Part shown: one piece after another, positions 2 to 2,940 of the stretch
How the letters are laid out: every line of letters starts with the position of its first letter
How positions within the stretch are numbered: the first letter of the stretch is position 1
Source of the DNA: an uncultured Candidatus Saccharibacteria bacterium
Lineage (GTDB): Bacteria; Patescibacteriota; Minisyncoccia; UBA6257; UBA11618
DNA length: 32,000 nucleotides
Direction of reading: 5' to 3'
Assembly: GCA_964432405.1 (NCBI GenBank)
Contig: CAYSNH010000001.1
Location: 1-32,000, forward strand
Translations under genes and position numbers: made by a program
The notes under the pieces: generated by a model
Databases searched by the model: none
What the model was told of the DNA's origin: nothing
Seen by the model: only the letters and a program-made list of their open reading frames with translations

Positions 2-229
2 GGTCAGTGCCCTGCGCCTCAGTGTGCTACTCATGAAAAAGGTTGCGTATATCTCAATTCTGATAAAAGAAATGCTGAGGGGTGTCTATTATATCCTTGT
101 AGTCAAAAGCTTTGCGACAAAAAAGCAGTGCAAGCCTGGTGTAAGGATGATGATGACGGTGGTGAACCAGGCCCAGGTGACGGTGATGGTGGTGAACCAG
201 GCCCAGGTGGCAGTGGTAATGGTTTTTAG
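2..229 (+). CDS. 3' end of a cysteine-rich secreted protein (5'-truncated by window edge) with an acidic Gly/Glu/Pro/Asp tail
   Basis: Frame 2 is open from the window edge to TAG at 227-229. It reads GQCPAPQCATHEKGCVYLNSDKRNAEGCLLYPCSQKLCDKKAVQAWCKDDDDGGEPGPGDGDGGEPGPGGSGNGF. It has 7 Cys and then an Asp/Gly-rich tail, the same architecture as the downstream 854-1585 protein. It is absent from the ORF track because it has no start codon in the window. Confidence 0.55.
   Translation, partial: GQCPAPQCATHEKGCVYLNSDKRNAEGCLLYPCSQKLCDKKAVQAWCKDDDDGGEPGPGDGDGGEPGPGGSGNGF
158..208 (+). repeat. Two perfect 21-bp coding repeats (ggtggtgaaccaggcccaggt), 30 bp apart
   Basis: Copies read directly at 158-178 and 188-208. 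Each encodes GGEPGPG in the tail of the partial Cys-rich protein. Confidence 0.85.
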
Positions 230-260
230 TAGTAATAGTTCAATCACTAAAAAATATTTG

Positions 261-266
261 TATTAT
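261..266 (+). promoter_or_regulatory. Possible -10 box (TATTAT) placed for a leaderless transcript of the 274 gene
   Basis: TATTAT ends 7 nt before ATG 274. No Shine-Dalgarno motif lies between. The same geometry occurs at 1660 and 2234. Confidence 0.3.
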
Positions 267-273
267 TAAAAGA

Positions 274-861
274 ATGAAAGTAGGTCATAAAGGTTATTCT
301 TCAAATAAAAATCTATTTTGGACGGTATTTAGCCTAATTATCTTAGGCCTTATCTTATTAATGGTCACTGGTACTCTTCAGTATCGACCTCAGCCATTAG
401 CAGCTGAAAATTGTTCTAATATTCAGGATGAACAGAGTTGCAAAAAAAGTTATAACTGCAAACTCAGCCCCACTGAAGGCTCTTGTTCTGTTATAGGTGA
501 AGTTGGGAAAAGTATAAAGTGCTCAACTAATGAAGATAGGCTACCAAAAGTAAGGAAGGAGGAGCGTTGCAAGCTTCTTCAAGGAAATCATCCATCTTGT
601 AGCTGGAATGGAACAACCTGTAAAGGCAATTATAGAATTCATAAAGGTTTTAAGCAATATTGTTTAAGTTTTAGCAGTGATGGTGGTGGAAAATTTAAAG
701 GCAAAAGGAATTGTGAGTATTATGGTGCTTGCAAATGGACAAGTAAGTGCATAGATAGAGAGCCTGAAAATCCTAAAGCAAAGTTCTGCAAAGGTGAAGG
801 AGTGTATTTTGATAAGGGAGAGGGAAAATGTAAGTGTAAAAAGCTTCTAGAAAATGGATAA
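274..861 (+). CDS. Cysteine-rich membrane-anchored/secreted protein (195 aa), unknown family
   Basis: N-terminal hydrophobic anchor NLFWTVFSLIILGLILLMVTG, then a lysine-rich ectodomain with about 15 Cys. It contains repeated C-x(6-12)-C-x-W-x(3,4)-C modules (RCKLLQGNHPSCSWNGTTC, NCEYYGACKWTSKC). It is a paralog of the next gene. Confidence 0.7.
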   Translation: MKVGHKGYSSNKNLFWTVFSLIILGLILLMVTGTLQYRPQPLAAENCSNIQDEQSCKKSYNCKLSPTEGSCSVIGEVGKSIKCSTNEDRLPKVRKEERCKLLQGNHPSCSWNGTTCKGNYRIHKGFKQYCLSFSSDGGGKFKGKRNCEYYGACKWTSKCIDREPENPKAKFCKGEGVYFDKGEGKCKCKKLLENG

Positions 862-1585
862 AATGAAAAAAAATAAAAATAGCTTTTGGACAATCTTTTC
901 AATTGTTGTTGTTATTTTTGTTCTCTTAGTCGCCTCTGGCAAAATACAACTCAATCAACCAACTCAGGCTGAAGCGGGCGAAGATAGATGCGAAGATGCT
1001 TGTGGTGAAGGAACAGAATGCAAGTTAATAGAACCAGATAATCAAAATTCAAAAGCTCCGTCACGCTTTATGTGCGTCTGTATAGATGACGACCAAGACG
1101 ATGATGACGACCAAAAAACTAAGGAATGCTCCGACTTCCTTAATCAAAATCTTGATGATAAAATGGGGGAAGCTTTGTGCGAAAAGTCCTCTAAAAAAGA
1201 AAATTTATCTTGTGCATATAAGCATAGTACTTGTACCTCAGGTAATCGTAAATTTAAAAAACGTTGTGAAAAATTATCAAACTTAGGTGAAAAAAGGTGT
1301 GTGTCAGCTATCTTGCATGGTAAAGACAACCAGTGCGAGTGGACTAAGTCAAGCTGCACTGATAAAAATGATGATGGTGATAAACCAGGTGATGGTGATA
1401 AACCAGGTGGTGGTGGCGGTGATAAGCCAGATGGCAATGGCGATGATGGCAATGGAGGTGATGGTAATGGAGATGACGGTGATAAACCAGATGGCAATGG
1501 CAATGACGATGGCAATGACGATGGCAATGACGATGGCAATGACGATGATGATGGCAATGGCGATGACAATGACCCTGCCTTGTAA
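854..1585 (+). CDS. Cysteine-rich membrane-anchored/secreted protein (243 aa) with a poly-acidic D/G/N/K/P repeat tail
   Basis: The anchor NSFWTIFSIVVVIFVLLVASG shares the FWT[VI]FS motif with the upstream paralog. It has 13 Cys, including RCVSAILHGKDNQCEWTKSSC. The C-terminal tail of about 70 aa reads GDKPGDGDKPGGGGGDKPDGNGDDGNGG...DDGNDDGNDDGNDDDDGNGDDNDPAL. It overlaps the upstream gene by 8 nt. Confidence 0.75.
   Translation: MDKMKKNKNSFWTIFSIVVVIFVLLVASGKIQLNQPTQAEAGEDRCEDACGEGTECKLIEPDNQNSKAPSRFMCVCIDDDQDDDDDQKTKECSDFLNQNLDDKMGEALCEKSSKKENLSCAYKHSTCTSGNRKFKKRCEKLSNLGEKRCVSAILHGKDNQCEWTKSSCTDKNDDGDKPGDGDKPGGGGGDKPDGNGDDGNGGDGNGDDGDKPDGNGNDDGNDDGNDDGNDDDDGNGDDNDPAL
1373..1408 (+). repeat. 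2 x 18-bp perfect tandem coding repeat (gatggtgataaaccaggt = DGDKPG)
   Basis: Read directly: 1373-1390 and 1391-1408 are identical. Confidence 0.9.
1499..1546 (+). repeat. 4 x 12-bp perfect tandem coding repeat (ggcaatgacgat = GNDD)
   Basis: Read directly: units at 1499-1510, 1511-1522, 1523-1534 and 1535-1546. Flanking sequence holds degenerate versions of the same unit. Confidence 0.9.
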
Positions 1586-1616: not shown

Positions 1617-1641
1617 AACAGCCCTTCGGGGCTGTTTTGTT
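1617..1641 (+). terminator. Rho-independent terminator after the Cys-rich gene trio
   Basis: Stem AACAGCCC (1617-1624), loop TTCG, stem GGGCTGTT (1629-1636), followed by the T-rich run TTGTTATT. It lies about 30 nt after the TAA of the 854-1585 gene. Confidence 0.75.
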
Positions 1642-1659
1642 ATTCTCTTTCCCCTGCCA

Positions 1660-1665
1660 TATAAT
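1660..1665 (+). promoter_or_regulatory. Consensus -10 box TATAAT, leaderless geometry for the adenosyltransferase gene
   Basis: TATAAT at 1660-1665 ends 6 nt before ATG 1672. No SD is possible in that spacing. Confidence 0.4.
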
Positions 1666-1671
1666 TAATCC

Positions 1672-2226
1672 ATGTCTATCTTCTACACCGGCCAAGGCGA
1701 TACTGGGGAAAGCAATTTAGGAGGTGATAAGAAGGTTGATAAATCCTGTATTGAGATTGAAACTCTTAACGTTCTTGATGAGTTAAATAGTTTGATTGGT
1801 CTTGTTAAAACTCAAGCTCTTCCCGACTTTATTAAAGAAATGCTTGATAGTATTCAAGAAGATCTTTTCATTATTCAAGCTCATATTGGCTCTTTAATGT
1901 TTGAAACTAAATCCCCCTCTCCTAACTTTCTTCCTGATAAAGTTAATAAACTAGAAGAATGGTCTGATTATTTTGAAAAGAAAGTTCAGCCTGCTCGTGG
2001 TTTTGTCATTCCTGGTGCCACTGGTCCTTCAGCTTGGCTCCATTGGTTAAGAGCTGTTTCTCGTCGCACCGAATTATCAATAGTTCACCTCAACAAAACA
2101 ACTAACGGCAAGCTATCACCTGCCATTCTTGCCTATCATAATCGCCTCTCCAGCGTCTTTTATGCTATGGCTAGGTATTTAGTCAAAGAAGCTGGAAAAG
2201 AGGAAAAGAATCCTCTATATAAGTAA
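1672..2226 (+). CDS. pduO: ATP:cob(I)alamin adenosyltransferase, PduO/MMAB type
   Basis: The N-terminus IFYTGQGDTGESNLGGDKKVDKS...LDELNSLIGL matches the PduO-type signature (YT.TGD.G.T.L..G.RV.K....EAYG.VDELNS.lGl). FVIPGATGPSAWLHWLRAVSRRTE matches the FILPGG...LH.aRtvcRRAE region. The 184-aa length is typical. Confidence 0.85.
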   Translation: MSIFYTGQGDTGESNLGGDKKVDKSCIEIETLNVLDELNSLIGLVKTQALPDFIKEMLDSIQEDLFIIQAHIGSLMFETKSPSPNFLPDKVNKLEEWSDYFEKKVQPARGFVIPGATGPSAWLHWLRAVSRRTELSIVHLNKTTNGKLSPAILAYHNRLSSVFYAMARYLVKEAGKEEKNPLYK

Positions 2227-2246: not shown

Positions 2247-2477
2247 ATGGATTTTAACACCTTGCTCTCCGCCCCTGCTATGGATGGGGATACTGTAATT
2301 AGACTACTTCCCCTTCTCGTTTGGAGCATGGTCTGGAAAGGCATTGGTATGTGGCAAGCGGCCAAGAAAAGACATTTAAAATGGTTTATTGCTATTCTGG
2401 TTTTAAATACCGCGGGGATTCTTCCAATTGTATATACTCAGTTTTTTGCAAAAAAGGTCGGTAAAAAAAATAAATAA
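2247..2477 (+). CDS. Small two-TM membrane protein (76 aa), DUF5652-like (family name from memory, unverified)
   Basis: Two hydrophobic helices flank WKGIGMWQAAKKRHLKWF, followed by a basic C-terminus. Confidence 0.6.
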   Translation: MDFNTLLSAPAMDGDTVIRLLPLLVWSMVWKGIGMWQAAKKRHLKWFIAILVLNTAGILPIVYTQFFAKKVGKKNK

Positions 2478-2485
2478 AATAATAT

Positions 2486-2743
2486 ATGTTAAAAGAAAAA
2501 GCTTGGGCTAATGCTTTAGCCGTCACCACCGGTGTTATTTATATAGTCTTTTATGTCATCGATATGGTTGCAACTGAAATGTTTGCCTTTATCTTTAACG
2601 CTCAATTCTTGGGAGCTGATATCACCTCCCTTGTTCCTGAAATGAGCTTTGGTGGCTTCATTAGCGTCTTAATTACCGTCGTTATCACCGCTTGGATCAT
2701 GGGCTACATCTGGGCCAAAGTATACAACAAATTTGCTAAGTAA
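2486..2743 (+). CDS. Small membrane protein (85 aa), unknown function
   Basis: Two predicted TM helices (ALAVTTGVIYIVFYVI and GGFISVLITVVITAWIMGYIW). Tight spacing with its neighbours. Confidence 0.55.
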   Translation: MLKEKAWANALAVTTGVIYIVFYVIDMVATEMFAFIFNAQFLGADITSLVPEMSFGGFISVLITVVITAWIMGYIWAKVYNKFAK

Positions 2744-2745
2744 CT

Positions 2746-2940
2746 ATGATTGGTAAAAAAGCCTTTGCGCTCTCAGCAGCGATTGTATTTTCATTCGCTT
2801 TCTCTATTCATTTTCTTCGTGTTATTTATAACTGGGAAATGATTATTGGCGGCGTTGCTCTACCAATGTGGTTAAGTTGGATGGGGTTCATTCTTGCTGG
2901 GTTTCTCCTTATTCATGGATTTAAGTTTAGTAAAAAGTGA
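2746..2940 (+). CDS. Small membrane protein (64 aa), unknown function
   Basis: Two hydrophobic helices. The stop TGA overlaps the GTG start of truB (GTGA at 2937-2940), consistent with translational coupling. Confidence 0.5.
   Translation: MIGKKAFALSAAIVFSFAFSIHFLRVIYNWEMIIGGVALPMWLSWMGFILAGFLLIHGFKFSKK

Follow-up and report, generated by a model that had tools for sequence, protein, structure and literature searches.

A conserved leader combined with fast-changing exposed parts is the usual evolutionary outcome for molecules that meet a host or an enemy. The Vlp, Vsa, and Vsp proteins of Mycoplasma, encoded in tandem clusters in tiny genomes, have a conserved signal, a variable body, and C-terminal repeats that vary between strains; the variant-specific surface proteins of Giardia and the immobilization antigens of ciliates join a conserved membrane-targeting segment to a hypervariable, disulfide-bonded, Cys-rich ectodomain; and conotoxin-type superfamilies and fungal or oomycete Cys-rich effectors (e.g., the Kazal-type EPI proteins) carry a conserved signal and a fixed Cys scaffold with very high ratios of nonsynonymous to synonymous divergence (dN/dS) between the cysteines. 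Among the surface proteins of monoderm bacteria, long signal peptides bearing a YSIRK-G/S or KxYKxGKxW motif are known. In Patescibacteria, VirB2-like T4SS_pilin arrays consist of tandem small exported proteins that diverge strongly within an array (PMC12102498). Here we describe a gene cassette that opens contig C1 (CAYSNH010000001.1) of an uncultured Candidatus Saccharibacteria bacterium with a 478-kb genome in 25 contigs, rated 98.8% complete, whose closest named relative is Patescibacteria group bacterium UBA11618 (TruB 92% identical); the first 32 kb of this contig form the stretch of DNA analyzed, hereafter the window. We propose, with a probability of about 0.55, that the cassette encodes lineage-restricted, exported, disulfide-stabilized “FW-leader Cys-rich proteins” and is a hypervariable locus serving recognition or adhesion in an arms race.

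The proteins follow a four-part plan: a leader of about 42 residues that is conserved, then a Cys-rich body that is hypervariable, and in most cases a Gly-rich repeat tail whose length varies and an aromatic residue at the C-terminal end. They resemble the mycoplasma proteins in their conserved signal, variable body, and repeat tails; the latter, however, are lipoproteins with a lipobox and Lsp and are not Cys-rich, whereas a lipoprotein identity was rejected for the present family, which lacks a lipobox at the first Cys in a genome (98.8% complete) without an LspA (PF01252) match. With the Giardia and ciliate antigens they share the organization as a multigene family, the conserved targeting segment, and the variable Cys-rich part, but those antigens are eukaryotic, have a C-terminal anchor, and frequently contain CXXC. 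Phase-variable expression in Mycoplasma and the expression of one member at a time in Giardia and ciliates are features of those systems. The signal, the Cys scaffold, and the dN/dS pattern, as well as WAP and Kazal-like modules in some relatives, recall the conotoxin and effector families, from which the present proteins differ in being bacterial and larger (118 to 320 amino acids [aa]), in having Gly-rich tails, and in the lack of inhibitor modules in the window proteins. Like the YSIRK and KxYKxGKxW peptides, the leader is unusually long, has a motif at the boundary between the N-region and the hydrophobic segment, and belongs to one class of surface proteins; its motif, however, is K-[NQ]-x-F-W, and no NCBIfam signal-peptide model matched. 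The possibility of a sortase substrate was rejected, as the C-termini (Gly-rich tails or short ends) lack LPXTG and no sortase (PF04203) match was found in the genome. Finally, the T4SS_pilin arrays are found in the same superphylum and are likewise tandem and strongly divergent, but they are recognized by a C-terminal VirB2-type hairpin, whereas the handle of the present family is a single N-terminal F-W helix. A T4SS_pilin or VirB2-like identity was rejected: the window proteins have no PF18895 match (E ≤ 1), the cassette is not beside genes for a type IV secretion system, and the four PF18895 genes of the genome, at C1:155 kb and C1:183-185 kb, are outside the family and not Cys-rich. We note separately that at these loci (C1:183355-184742 and C1:154935-156212) three small PF18895 genes form an array and a further gene encodes a 425-aa protein that ends in this hairpin.

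Three plus-strand open reading frames (ORFs) begin the window, at 2..229, 274..861, and 854..1585, as a sequence-only reading of this DNA had described. The first (gene 1, type A; ORF call) comprises the 3′ part of a gene, 75 codons plus stop, cut at its 5′ side by the contig end. The 5′ part, with the leader MARDKSSDSDKQAFWIILALVIAVLLFGGFLSKEQVAVEA, lies on contig C9 (C9:183..1, minus strand): the start of C9, in reverse complement, equals the start of C1 over 55 identical nucleotides (nt) and thus completes a protein of 118 aa with 7 Cys. This join is confirmed because the 118-aa protein was found in an independent assembly with 1 residue different (P0016) and because an additional type-A copy on C9 recurs unchanged elsewhere (P0025). 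Gene 2 (type B; 274..861) encodes 195 aa with 15 Cys and no Gly-rich tail, and its 11 homologues have a common leader but very different bodies. Gene 3 (type C; 854..1585) encodes 243 aa with 13 Cys, its start overlapping the gene 2 stop by 8 nt. The local order is FAD oxidase, a type-A gene (147 aa), gene 1, gene 2, gene 3, a terminator, and the cobalamin adenosyltransferase gene (CobAT). The earlier description of a “trio” therefore fits the three tandem ORFs but is too narrow, as they are part of a larger set with four genes in tandem and more on contig C4.

The evidence for an arms race comes mainly from comparison with a near-identical strain (L003), whose flanking proteins are 98 to 100% identical to those of the window genome. 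Between the two strains, identity is 47% for the mature part of type A, 93% for that of type B, and 81% for that of type C, whereas the leaders of types B and C are 98 to 100% identical, with no change in the type-B leader and at most one in the type-C leader. For the type-C body, taken in the selection test as the mini-module plus the eight-Cys region of gene 3, a clean codon alignment gave 40.5 nonsynonymous and 1.5 synonymous differences, corresponding to a synonymous divergence (dS) of 0.021 and a dN/dS of 6.45, with 21, 19, and 3 changes at codon positions 1, 2, and 3, respectively. The mature part of type B gave a dS of 0.024 and a dN/dS of 1.26. In the flanks, dS was similar, at 0.017 for CobAT, 0.014 for TruB, and 0.017 for the UGM-like gene, and dN/dS was 0.27, 0, and 0, respectively. 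The nonsynonymous excess in type C is significant both within the gene (p = 0.018) and against the flanks (p ~1e-33), and all 13 Cys as well as the poly-Asp linker are unchanged. Relaxed constraint was rejected as an explanation, as it would push dN/dS toward 1 and would not spare every Cys. In other near-identical strain pairs, all 6 differences in cassette genes are nonsynonymous, too few for a ratio. The earlier suggestion that these proteins are candidates for interaction with a host or partner thus gains support from what appears to be strong diversifying selection on their bodies.

A second mode of change is seen in type A. Nucleotide identity to L003 stays at 96 to 100% as far as roughly residue 35 of the first type-A leader, drops sharply across the bodies, and returns within the gene 1 tail near window position 154, reaching 100% from about 216 (BLAST); the window genome has two type-A genes, and L003 has one. 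Because identity breaks near the end of the leader and returns in the tail, and because the copy number differs, we infer that the type-A body has been exchanged wholesale between the conserved leader and the repetitive tail. Between two more distant strains (L001 and L004), the proportion of synonymous differences (pS) in type A is 0.54, compared with 0.04 to 0.17 in the flanks, which indicates allelic replacement as judged from synonymous sites. In a further comparison, of L001 with L003, the FAD oxidase flank has 98% nucleotide identity and the CobAT flank 85%, and because of this difference between the upstream and downstream flanks, a recombination breakpoint between lineages is placed inside the cassette by the alignment. 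A diversity-generating retroelement is an unlikely source of the variation, with no reverse transcriptase (PF00078) in the genome; a tblastn search of the genome gave no further copy of the gene bodies, and no nucleotide search for a template repeat was run.

The leader stands in sharp contrast to the bodies. An alignment of all types has a Lys/Asn-rich N-region, an invariant Trp after a nearly invariant Phe, and about 20 hydrophobic residues with a nearly invariant Gly late in the run, followed by a linker that ends in V-E-A|G in type A, A-E-A|G in type C, and P-L-A in type B. The conserved N-terminal motif and hydrophobic helix first noticed in the two complete genes are present in both as K-N-x-F-W-T-[VI]-F-S plus helix, and the motif generalizes to K-[NQ]-x-F-W across the family. 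The first 42 or so residues are free of Cys, the first Cys lying 3 to 15 residues past the A-x-A-like site. In gene 2, the type-B leader MKVGHKGYSSNKNLFWTVFSLIILGLILLMVTGTLQYRPQPLA (residues 1 to 43; 274..402, plus strand) has 33 invariant columns within residues 1 to 43; the type-C leader of gene 3 (residues 1 to 41; 854..976, plus strand) ends in ...QPTQAEA. Synonymous drift in the type-B leader is 0.24 to 0.36, compared with 0.31 in the flanking CobAT, and because drift equals that of the flanking gene, it is the amino acid sequence of the leader that appears to be kept by purifying selection, rather than the DNA by homogenization. The distribution of charges around the helix favors an N-in/C-out topology.

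Whether this leader is removed or stays as an anchor bears on how the proteins would be displayed, and we lean slightly toward cleavage by type I signal peptidase. V-E-A|G and A-E-A|G conform to the −3/−1 rule, the enzyme is encoded in the genome, and sequence variation begins directly past the A-x-A-like site. The pattern [VA]EA[GQES] also occurs 4 to 16 residues past an N-terminal helix in seven ORFs of the genome, three of which are outside the strict family (about 0.2 expected by chance). Retention of the leader as a membrane anchor, to which we give a little under an even chance, is favored by its length of 41 to 44 residues with a 19- to 22-residue hydrophobic run typical of anchors. The clear signal peptides of this genome are only about half as long, and the leader resembles the N-terminal segment of the DsbA-like protein, which, by analogy with MdbA, is probably membrane anchored itself; moreover, at −3 the type-B site P-L-A carries Pro, which is atypical. 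The term “anchor” used in the sequence-only reading is compatible with the length of the hydrophobic run, but the segment may instead be a cleaved leader, given the V/A-E-A|G at a fixed distance past the helix, also found in unrelated exported proteins, and the presence of the peptidase. Release by a rhomboid was rejected, none being found in the genome. Two larger exported proteins, encoded at C8:4895(−) and C8:1033(−), also have a long leader ending in VEA[GQ] and are not Cys-rich, one having 317 aa without Cys and the other at least 344 aa with a GGDDSGG tail; this kind of leader may be used for a broader range of cargo.

The bodies are marked by a recurring Cys motif and by an odd number of cysteines. 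The motif C-x-[WY]-x(3,4)-C occurs three times in gene 2 and twice in gene 3 (neither count was reached in any of 2,000 shuffles), and 17 times family-wide against 3.1 expected. The earlier claim of repeated Cys modules accordingly stands for genes 2 and 3, with their 15 and 13 Cys, but does not extend to gene 1, which lacks the motif. In gene 2, two tandem 4-Cys units containing it span C83-C116 and C130-C159 (520..750, plus strand); in gene 3, an eight-Cys region, C92-C168 (1127..1357, plus strand), contains two C-x(10,11)-C-x-[WY]-x4-C units. Without their leaders, genes 2 and 3 are marginally similar (E ~0.02 to 0.03; hhalign and BLASTP), the similarity being confined to the two tandem 4-Cys units with the motif, and gene 1 matches neither; calling the three proteins paralogous is therefore valid for the leader alone. 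Upstream of its eight-Cys region, gene 3 has a 5-Cys mini-module, C46-x3-C-x5-C-x17-C-x-C76 (989..1081, plus strand), and the poly-Asp linker DDDQDDDDDQ (1085..1114, plus strand; period-9 repeat at 1085-1111, TRF). The mini-module had been considered loosely EGF-like, yet no Pfam EGF model matched it at E ≤ 1, nor did one appear in a census of 40 family members. At its C-terminus, gene 2 has a 3-Cys element, FCKGEGVYFDKGEGKCKC (787..837, plus strand), that looks like a degenerate form of the mini-module CG[ED]GT.C..GKC.C of relatives. As a universal signature of the family, this mini-module was rejected, its strict pattern occurring in 6 of 24 non-redundant members.

The Cys count is odd in 35 of 40 untruncated family members, over a range of 5 to 29, and parity holds inside clusters whose members differ in count (15/23/25/27, 11/17/27, 13/19, and 7/11). 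Because parity is kept in this way, the bodies appear to grow and shrink by whole even-Cys modules. Splits counted by eye are 8 + 6 + 5 + 8 = 27 in L008:5160-5888, 5 + 8 = 13 in P0024, and 6 + 5 = 11 in P0023. The simplest reading of an odd count is n disulfides plus one unpaired Cys, and module arithmetic makes the C-terminal 3-Cys element of gene 2 a candidate site of the unpaired residue. An improbable elaboration would make the family a bacterial counterpart of the eukaryotic variant Cys-rich systems, with swappable heads and one reactive unpaired Cys forming a disulfide link to a partner; candidates for this partner would be the type IV pilus, another member of the family, or a surface protein of the host, and the heads would be renewed by cassette exchange between leader and tail. 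If true, the cassette would be a thiol-based host-capture device of an ultra-small epibiont.

The odd counts differ from the rest of the secretome. Among other proteins of the genome with a single N-terminal hydrophobic segment, counts are even in 32 and odd in 4 of those with at least two Cys, and even in 14 and odd in 1 of those with at least four. Such an even-Cys bias among exported proteins is generally taken to indicate that disulfides form outside the cytoplasm (PMC2823432). The organism has genes for a single type I signal peptidase, two VKOR homologues (C20:403-774 and C3:44442-44801), a DsbA-like thioredoxin (Thioredoxin_4), and a prepilin peptidase, and an enrichment of MdbA-like oxidoreductases alongside VKOR has been reported for bacteria of the Candidate Phyla Radiation (bioRxiv 10.1101/335083). 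On account of the even-Cys bias and the two VKOR genes, we consider that this 478-kb genome keeps what seems to be a full extracytoplasmic disulfide system. The family proteins are predicted to face outward and to be disulfide bonded, in agreement with their earlier description as extracellular and disulfide rich and with the presence of an oxidation system. That such exported proteins are unusual, as was also suggested, does not apply to this organism, with its two VKORs, its DsbA-like protein, and its 32:4 bias.

As first reported, the window proteins are unclassified: they have no Pfam (E ≤ 1) or NCBIfam match, and profile searches against PDB sequences returned nothing below E = 0.1. Neither WAP (PF00095) nor Kazal (PF00050 and PF07648) models matched them. 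Among the 40 family members, WAP was found in two (best E 2.5e-10; L008:5160-5888 at 39.8 bits against a cut-off of 20.8), and a carboxypeptidase-A inhibitor model matched one weakly. In single relatives, Kazal fell just below its cut-off (18.1 versus 21 bits) and an archaeal-type eight-Cys module fell below its curated one; heavy_Cys reached 39.9 bits among relatives, and a larger sister-genus protein has Myxococcus-type Cys repeats (myxo_disulf_rpt, 87 bits). At least 36 of the 40 members have no recognizable module. Because so few carry one, the bodies are best viewed as mosaics of small disulfide modules that are mostly uncatalogued.

These matches bring in a different role, that of secreted effectors (protease inhibitors or defensin-like peptides) shielding the cell from, or acting against, enzymes and membranes of a host or of competitors, for which the Kazal-type effectors of oomycetes offer a likeness. 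The only Pfam modules recognized in the family, i.e., WAP in 2 of 40, Kazal near threshold, and the weak carboxypeptidase-A inhibitor, are inhibitor folds; several relatives have the spacing C-x6-C-x6-C-x10-C-x8-CC, which by eye appears beta-defensin-like; and positive selection is typical of such effectors. However, no such module occurs in the three window proteins or, recognizably, in at least 36 of the 40 members, and the small disulfide-rich families in Pfam are mostly inhibitors, so that the matches may reflect cataloguing only. We therefore regard an effector role as unlikely.

The Asp/Gly/Asn/Pro-rich tails of genes 1 and 3 are real and are encoded by in-frame tandem DNA repeats. Gene 1 ends in the low-complexity tail KDDDDGGEPGPGDGDGGEPGPGGSGNGF (143..226, plus strand; translation), with an aromatic C-terminal end (GNGF), and gene 3 has an Asp/Gly/Asn/Lys/Pro low-complexity tail (1358..1582, plus strand) with DNA repeats of periods 12, 18, 24, and 30 nt at 1360-1573 (TRF). 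An aromatic residue lies within the last five positions in 15 of 17 non-redundant tails, although aromatics account for just 1.7% of the remaining tail residues (p ~5e-15); gene 3, which ends in DPAL, departs from this pattern, and gene 2 is without a tail. Tail length varies between near-identical strains (proteins of 189 versus 199 aa and 328 versus 322 aa), and the gene 3 tail differs in length from that of L003, with gaps and reduced identity at 1236-1560 (BLAST).

The tails had been proposed to bind calcium or mineral, and the corresponding rival, that the family consists of N-terminally anchored structural surface proteins, draws on the strongly acidic tails of genes 1 and 3 and on the anchor-length hydrophobic run. 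However, tail composition is not conserved (orthologue tails are often neutral, e.g., GGQPGG, GGPSGG, and GSEGGN), length varies as noted above, gene 2 is tailless, and no calcium-binding repeat model was matched by the tails (Pfam, E ≤ 1), whose repeats lack the hydrophobic position of the RTX nonapeptide GGxGxDxUx. Diversifying selection on the bodies does not suggest a structural role either. Calcium or mineral binding by the tails is thus not borne out, and a structural function of this kind seems very unlikely.

The family comprises at least six genes in this genome, and probably seven. A leader search of the genome returned six strong matches, to which one divergent member is added; outside the cassette, two members lie at the 3′ end of contig C4, and the divergent member lies 4.5 kb upstream of the C4 pilus operon. 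The earlier idea of a lineage-specific family is well supported, as the leader profile matches only 27 clusters among 1.84 billion representative clusters. When 61 related genomes were searched with the leader, strong matches were found only in the genome of the window itself; weaker variants, NQ[AT]LFWVVF, stand at the start of Cys-rich proteins from four sister genera in the same taxonomic family, and a search with gene 2 returned no relative in named genomes. A same-genus genome gave no leader match; its contig ends about 1.4 kb upstream of TruB (L027), near the expected position of the cassette, so that this absence is probably an assembly gap. Seven independent assemblies have three to five family genes at the site between the FAD oxidase and CobAT, and in each the order of types A, B, and C relative to one another is the same. 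The loci L001 to L009 derive from deep marine and groundwater samples.

Family genes at contig ends and scaffold gaps, together with tails made of tandem repeats, could also be a sign of decaying, non-functional, repeat-rich DNA or of a contig-end artefact. This explanation is strongly disfavored: at least seven independent assemblies, each time with the genes in one and the same order, contain intact orthologues, and these assemblies stem from different samples; the leader appears to be under purifying selection; all Cys are kept while other residues change; dN/dS is well above 1 rather than near it; and the contig join is confirmed by the two independent proteins (P0016 and P0025). Contig ends C1 5′, C9 5′, C4 3′, and C8 5′ fall in Gly-rich tail repeats or duplicated leaders of family or similar genes, and a tail-like tblastn match also lies at the C15 3′ end. 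The family appears to be a main cause of assembly breaks in these genomes and, because they break into contigs at family loci, is probably undercounted in short-read metagenome-assembled genomes.

The members on C4 raise the question of a link to type IV pili. Contig C4 carries a complete type IV pilus operon (C4:33313-43604; PilM/N/O-like, PilB, PilT, PilC, the major pilin, prepilin peptidase, and four minor pilins) followed by two family genes, one of which spans an N run in a (GDN)n linker while the other runs off the contig in a GGPSGGPG tail. In a sister genus (G009; C8:29209-40679, L064), seven FW-leader Cys-rich genes lie within the pilus operon, between PilB and PilT and just after a small GIY-YIG-like gene; they encode 435 to 1,236 aa with up to 125 Cys, some with Myxococcus-type Cys repeats. 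The proteins might therefore be accessory or tip adhesins of the pilus that, after export through Sec, join the minor-pilin complex and display variable Cys-rich heads on the pilus; PilY1 of Pseudomonas is a model for such pilus-tip association. On C4, the last minor-pilin gene of a complete operon has two family members immediately downstream, the divergent member lies 4.5 kb upstream of the operon, and the seven genes of the sister genus sit inside its operon; because chance is an unlikely explanation for two independent placements within or next to this operon, we keep a pilus-associated role as the main rival.

The window cassette, however, lies between the FAD oxidase and CobAT, far from pilus genes, and this is the conserved site. 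In five relatives, one of them from the same genus, a LigA-like gene (named from its translated N-terminus), and not a family gene, comes immediately after the last pilus gene, which weakens the case for strict functional coupling to the pilus. Nor does the leader qualify as a class III pilin signal: Gly −1 is replaced by L, A, S, T, V, or N (before F-W) and Glu +5 by a hydrophobic residue, whereas the true pilins of the same genome read KAGFTLIEVL and KKGFTMIELL, and no pilin N-terminal model is among the Pfam matches of the window proteins at E ≤ 1. On balance, we rate pilus adhesins as doubtful.

Several points weigh against recognition or adhesion in an arms race as the role of the family. 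Most of the evidence for a dN/dS above 1 comes from a single strain pair and a single gene. Of the untruncated members, five have even Cys counts; in one of them (P0032), the extra Cys is in an apparently mis-called N-terminal extension, as judged from its nearest relatives (P0031 and the G008 and G012 genes), which start at a later Met. AlphaFold2 models of genes 3 and 2, built from 8- and 11-sequence alignments, have a mean predicted local distance difference test score (pLDDT) of 52 and 48 and are unusable. The epibiont life of the lineage is presumed, and the partner is putative.

The cassette is closed by an intrinsic-terminator-like hairpin with 8 pairs (5 G-C) and a loop of 4, followed by a T-rich run (1617..1646, plus strand; hairpin itself 1617-1636), so that the terminator previously assigned to this block was recovered. 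Directly after the hairpin, a promoter-like pair, TTGTTA-17 nt-TATAAT, was observed at window positions 1637-1672. Because its −10 box ends 6 nt before the CobAT ATG at 1672, the layout suggests a leaderless or near-leaderless CobAT transcript. Three small two-helix membrane proteins (DUF5652, DUF5676, and one unassigned) are encoded between CobAT and truB (window 2247-2940), and the DUF5652 and DUF5676 genes are syntenic in L001, L003, and L004, although DUF5676 has no gene call in L003. The cassette had been described as lying next to a glycan locus; that locus begins about 2 kb away, with five unrelated genes in between, and the link is one of loose proximity only.

Onto the gene structure, family limits, selection pattern, Cys parity, and folding and processing machinery observed here, we place a model whose topology, cleavage, disulfide bonding, and function are predicted from sequence. 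The leader of about 42 residues would insert N-in/C-out through Sec and would then be cut at the A-x-A-like site by the single type I signal peptidase or stay as a membrane anchor. Outside the cell, the VKOR/DsbA-like system would oxidize the body into small disulfide modules, leaving one Cys systematically unpaired, and the Gly-rich repeat tail would act as a length-variable flexible spacer, usually with an aromatic end. The body would change by positive selection on residues between fixed cysteines and by the shuffling of modules and outright replacement of the stretch that separates the conserved leader from the repetitive tail. We hypothesize that the proteins recognize or adhere to a coevolving partner, such as the host cell surface of this presumed epibiont, or that their variation evades phages or host defenses that target them.

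New here are the extent of the family, the leader-body-tail-aromatic-end plan, the odd-Cys rule set against an even secretome, the two modes of diversification, and the recurrent placement at pilus operons. Disulfide modules of the WAP and Kazal-like kinds, otherwise familiar mostly from animal proteins, are in circulation in this lineage of bacteria. Although this 478-kb genome has lost most other functions, it gives about 1% of its length to the cassette, which has been kept, duplicated, and changed faster than its neighbors. For the question of how ultra-small Patescibacteria recognize and hold their partner cells, this cassette offers a concrete, testable candidate for the recognition layer.

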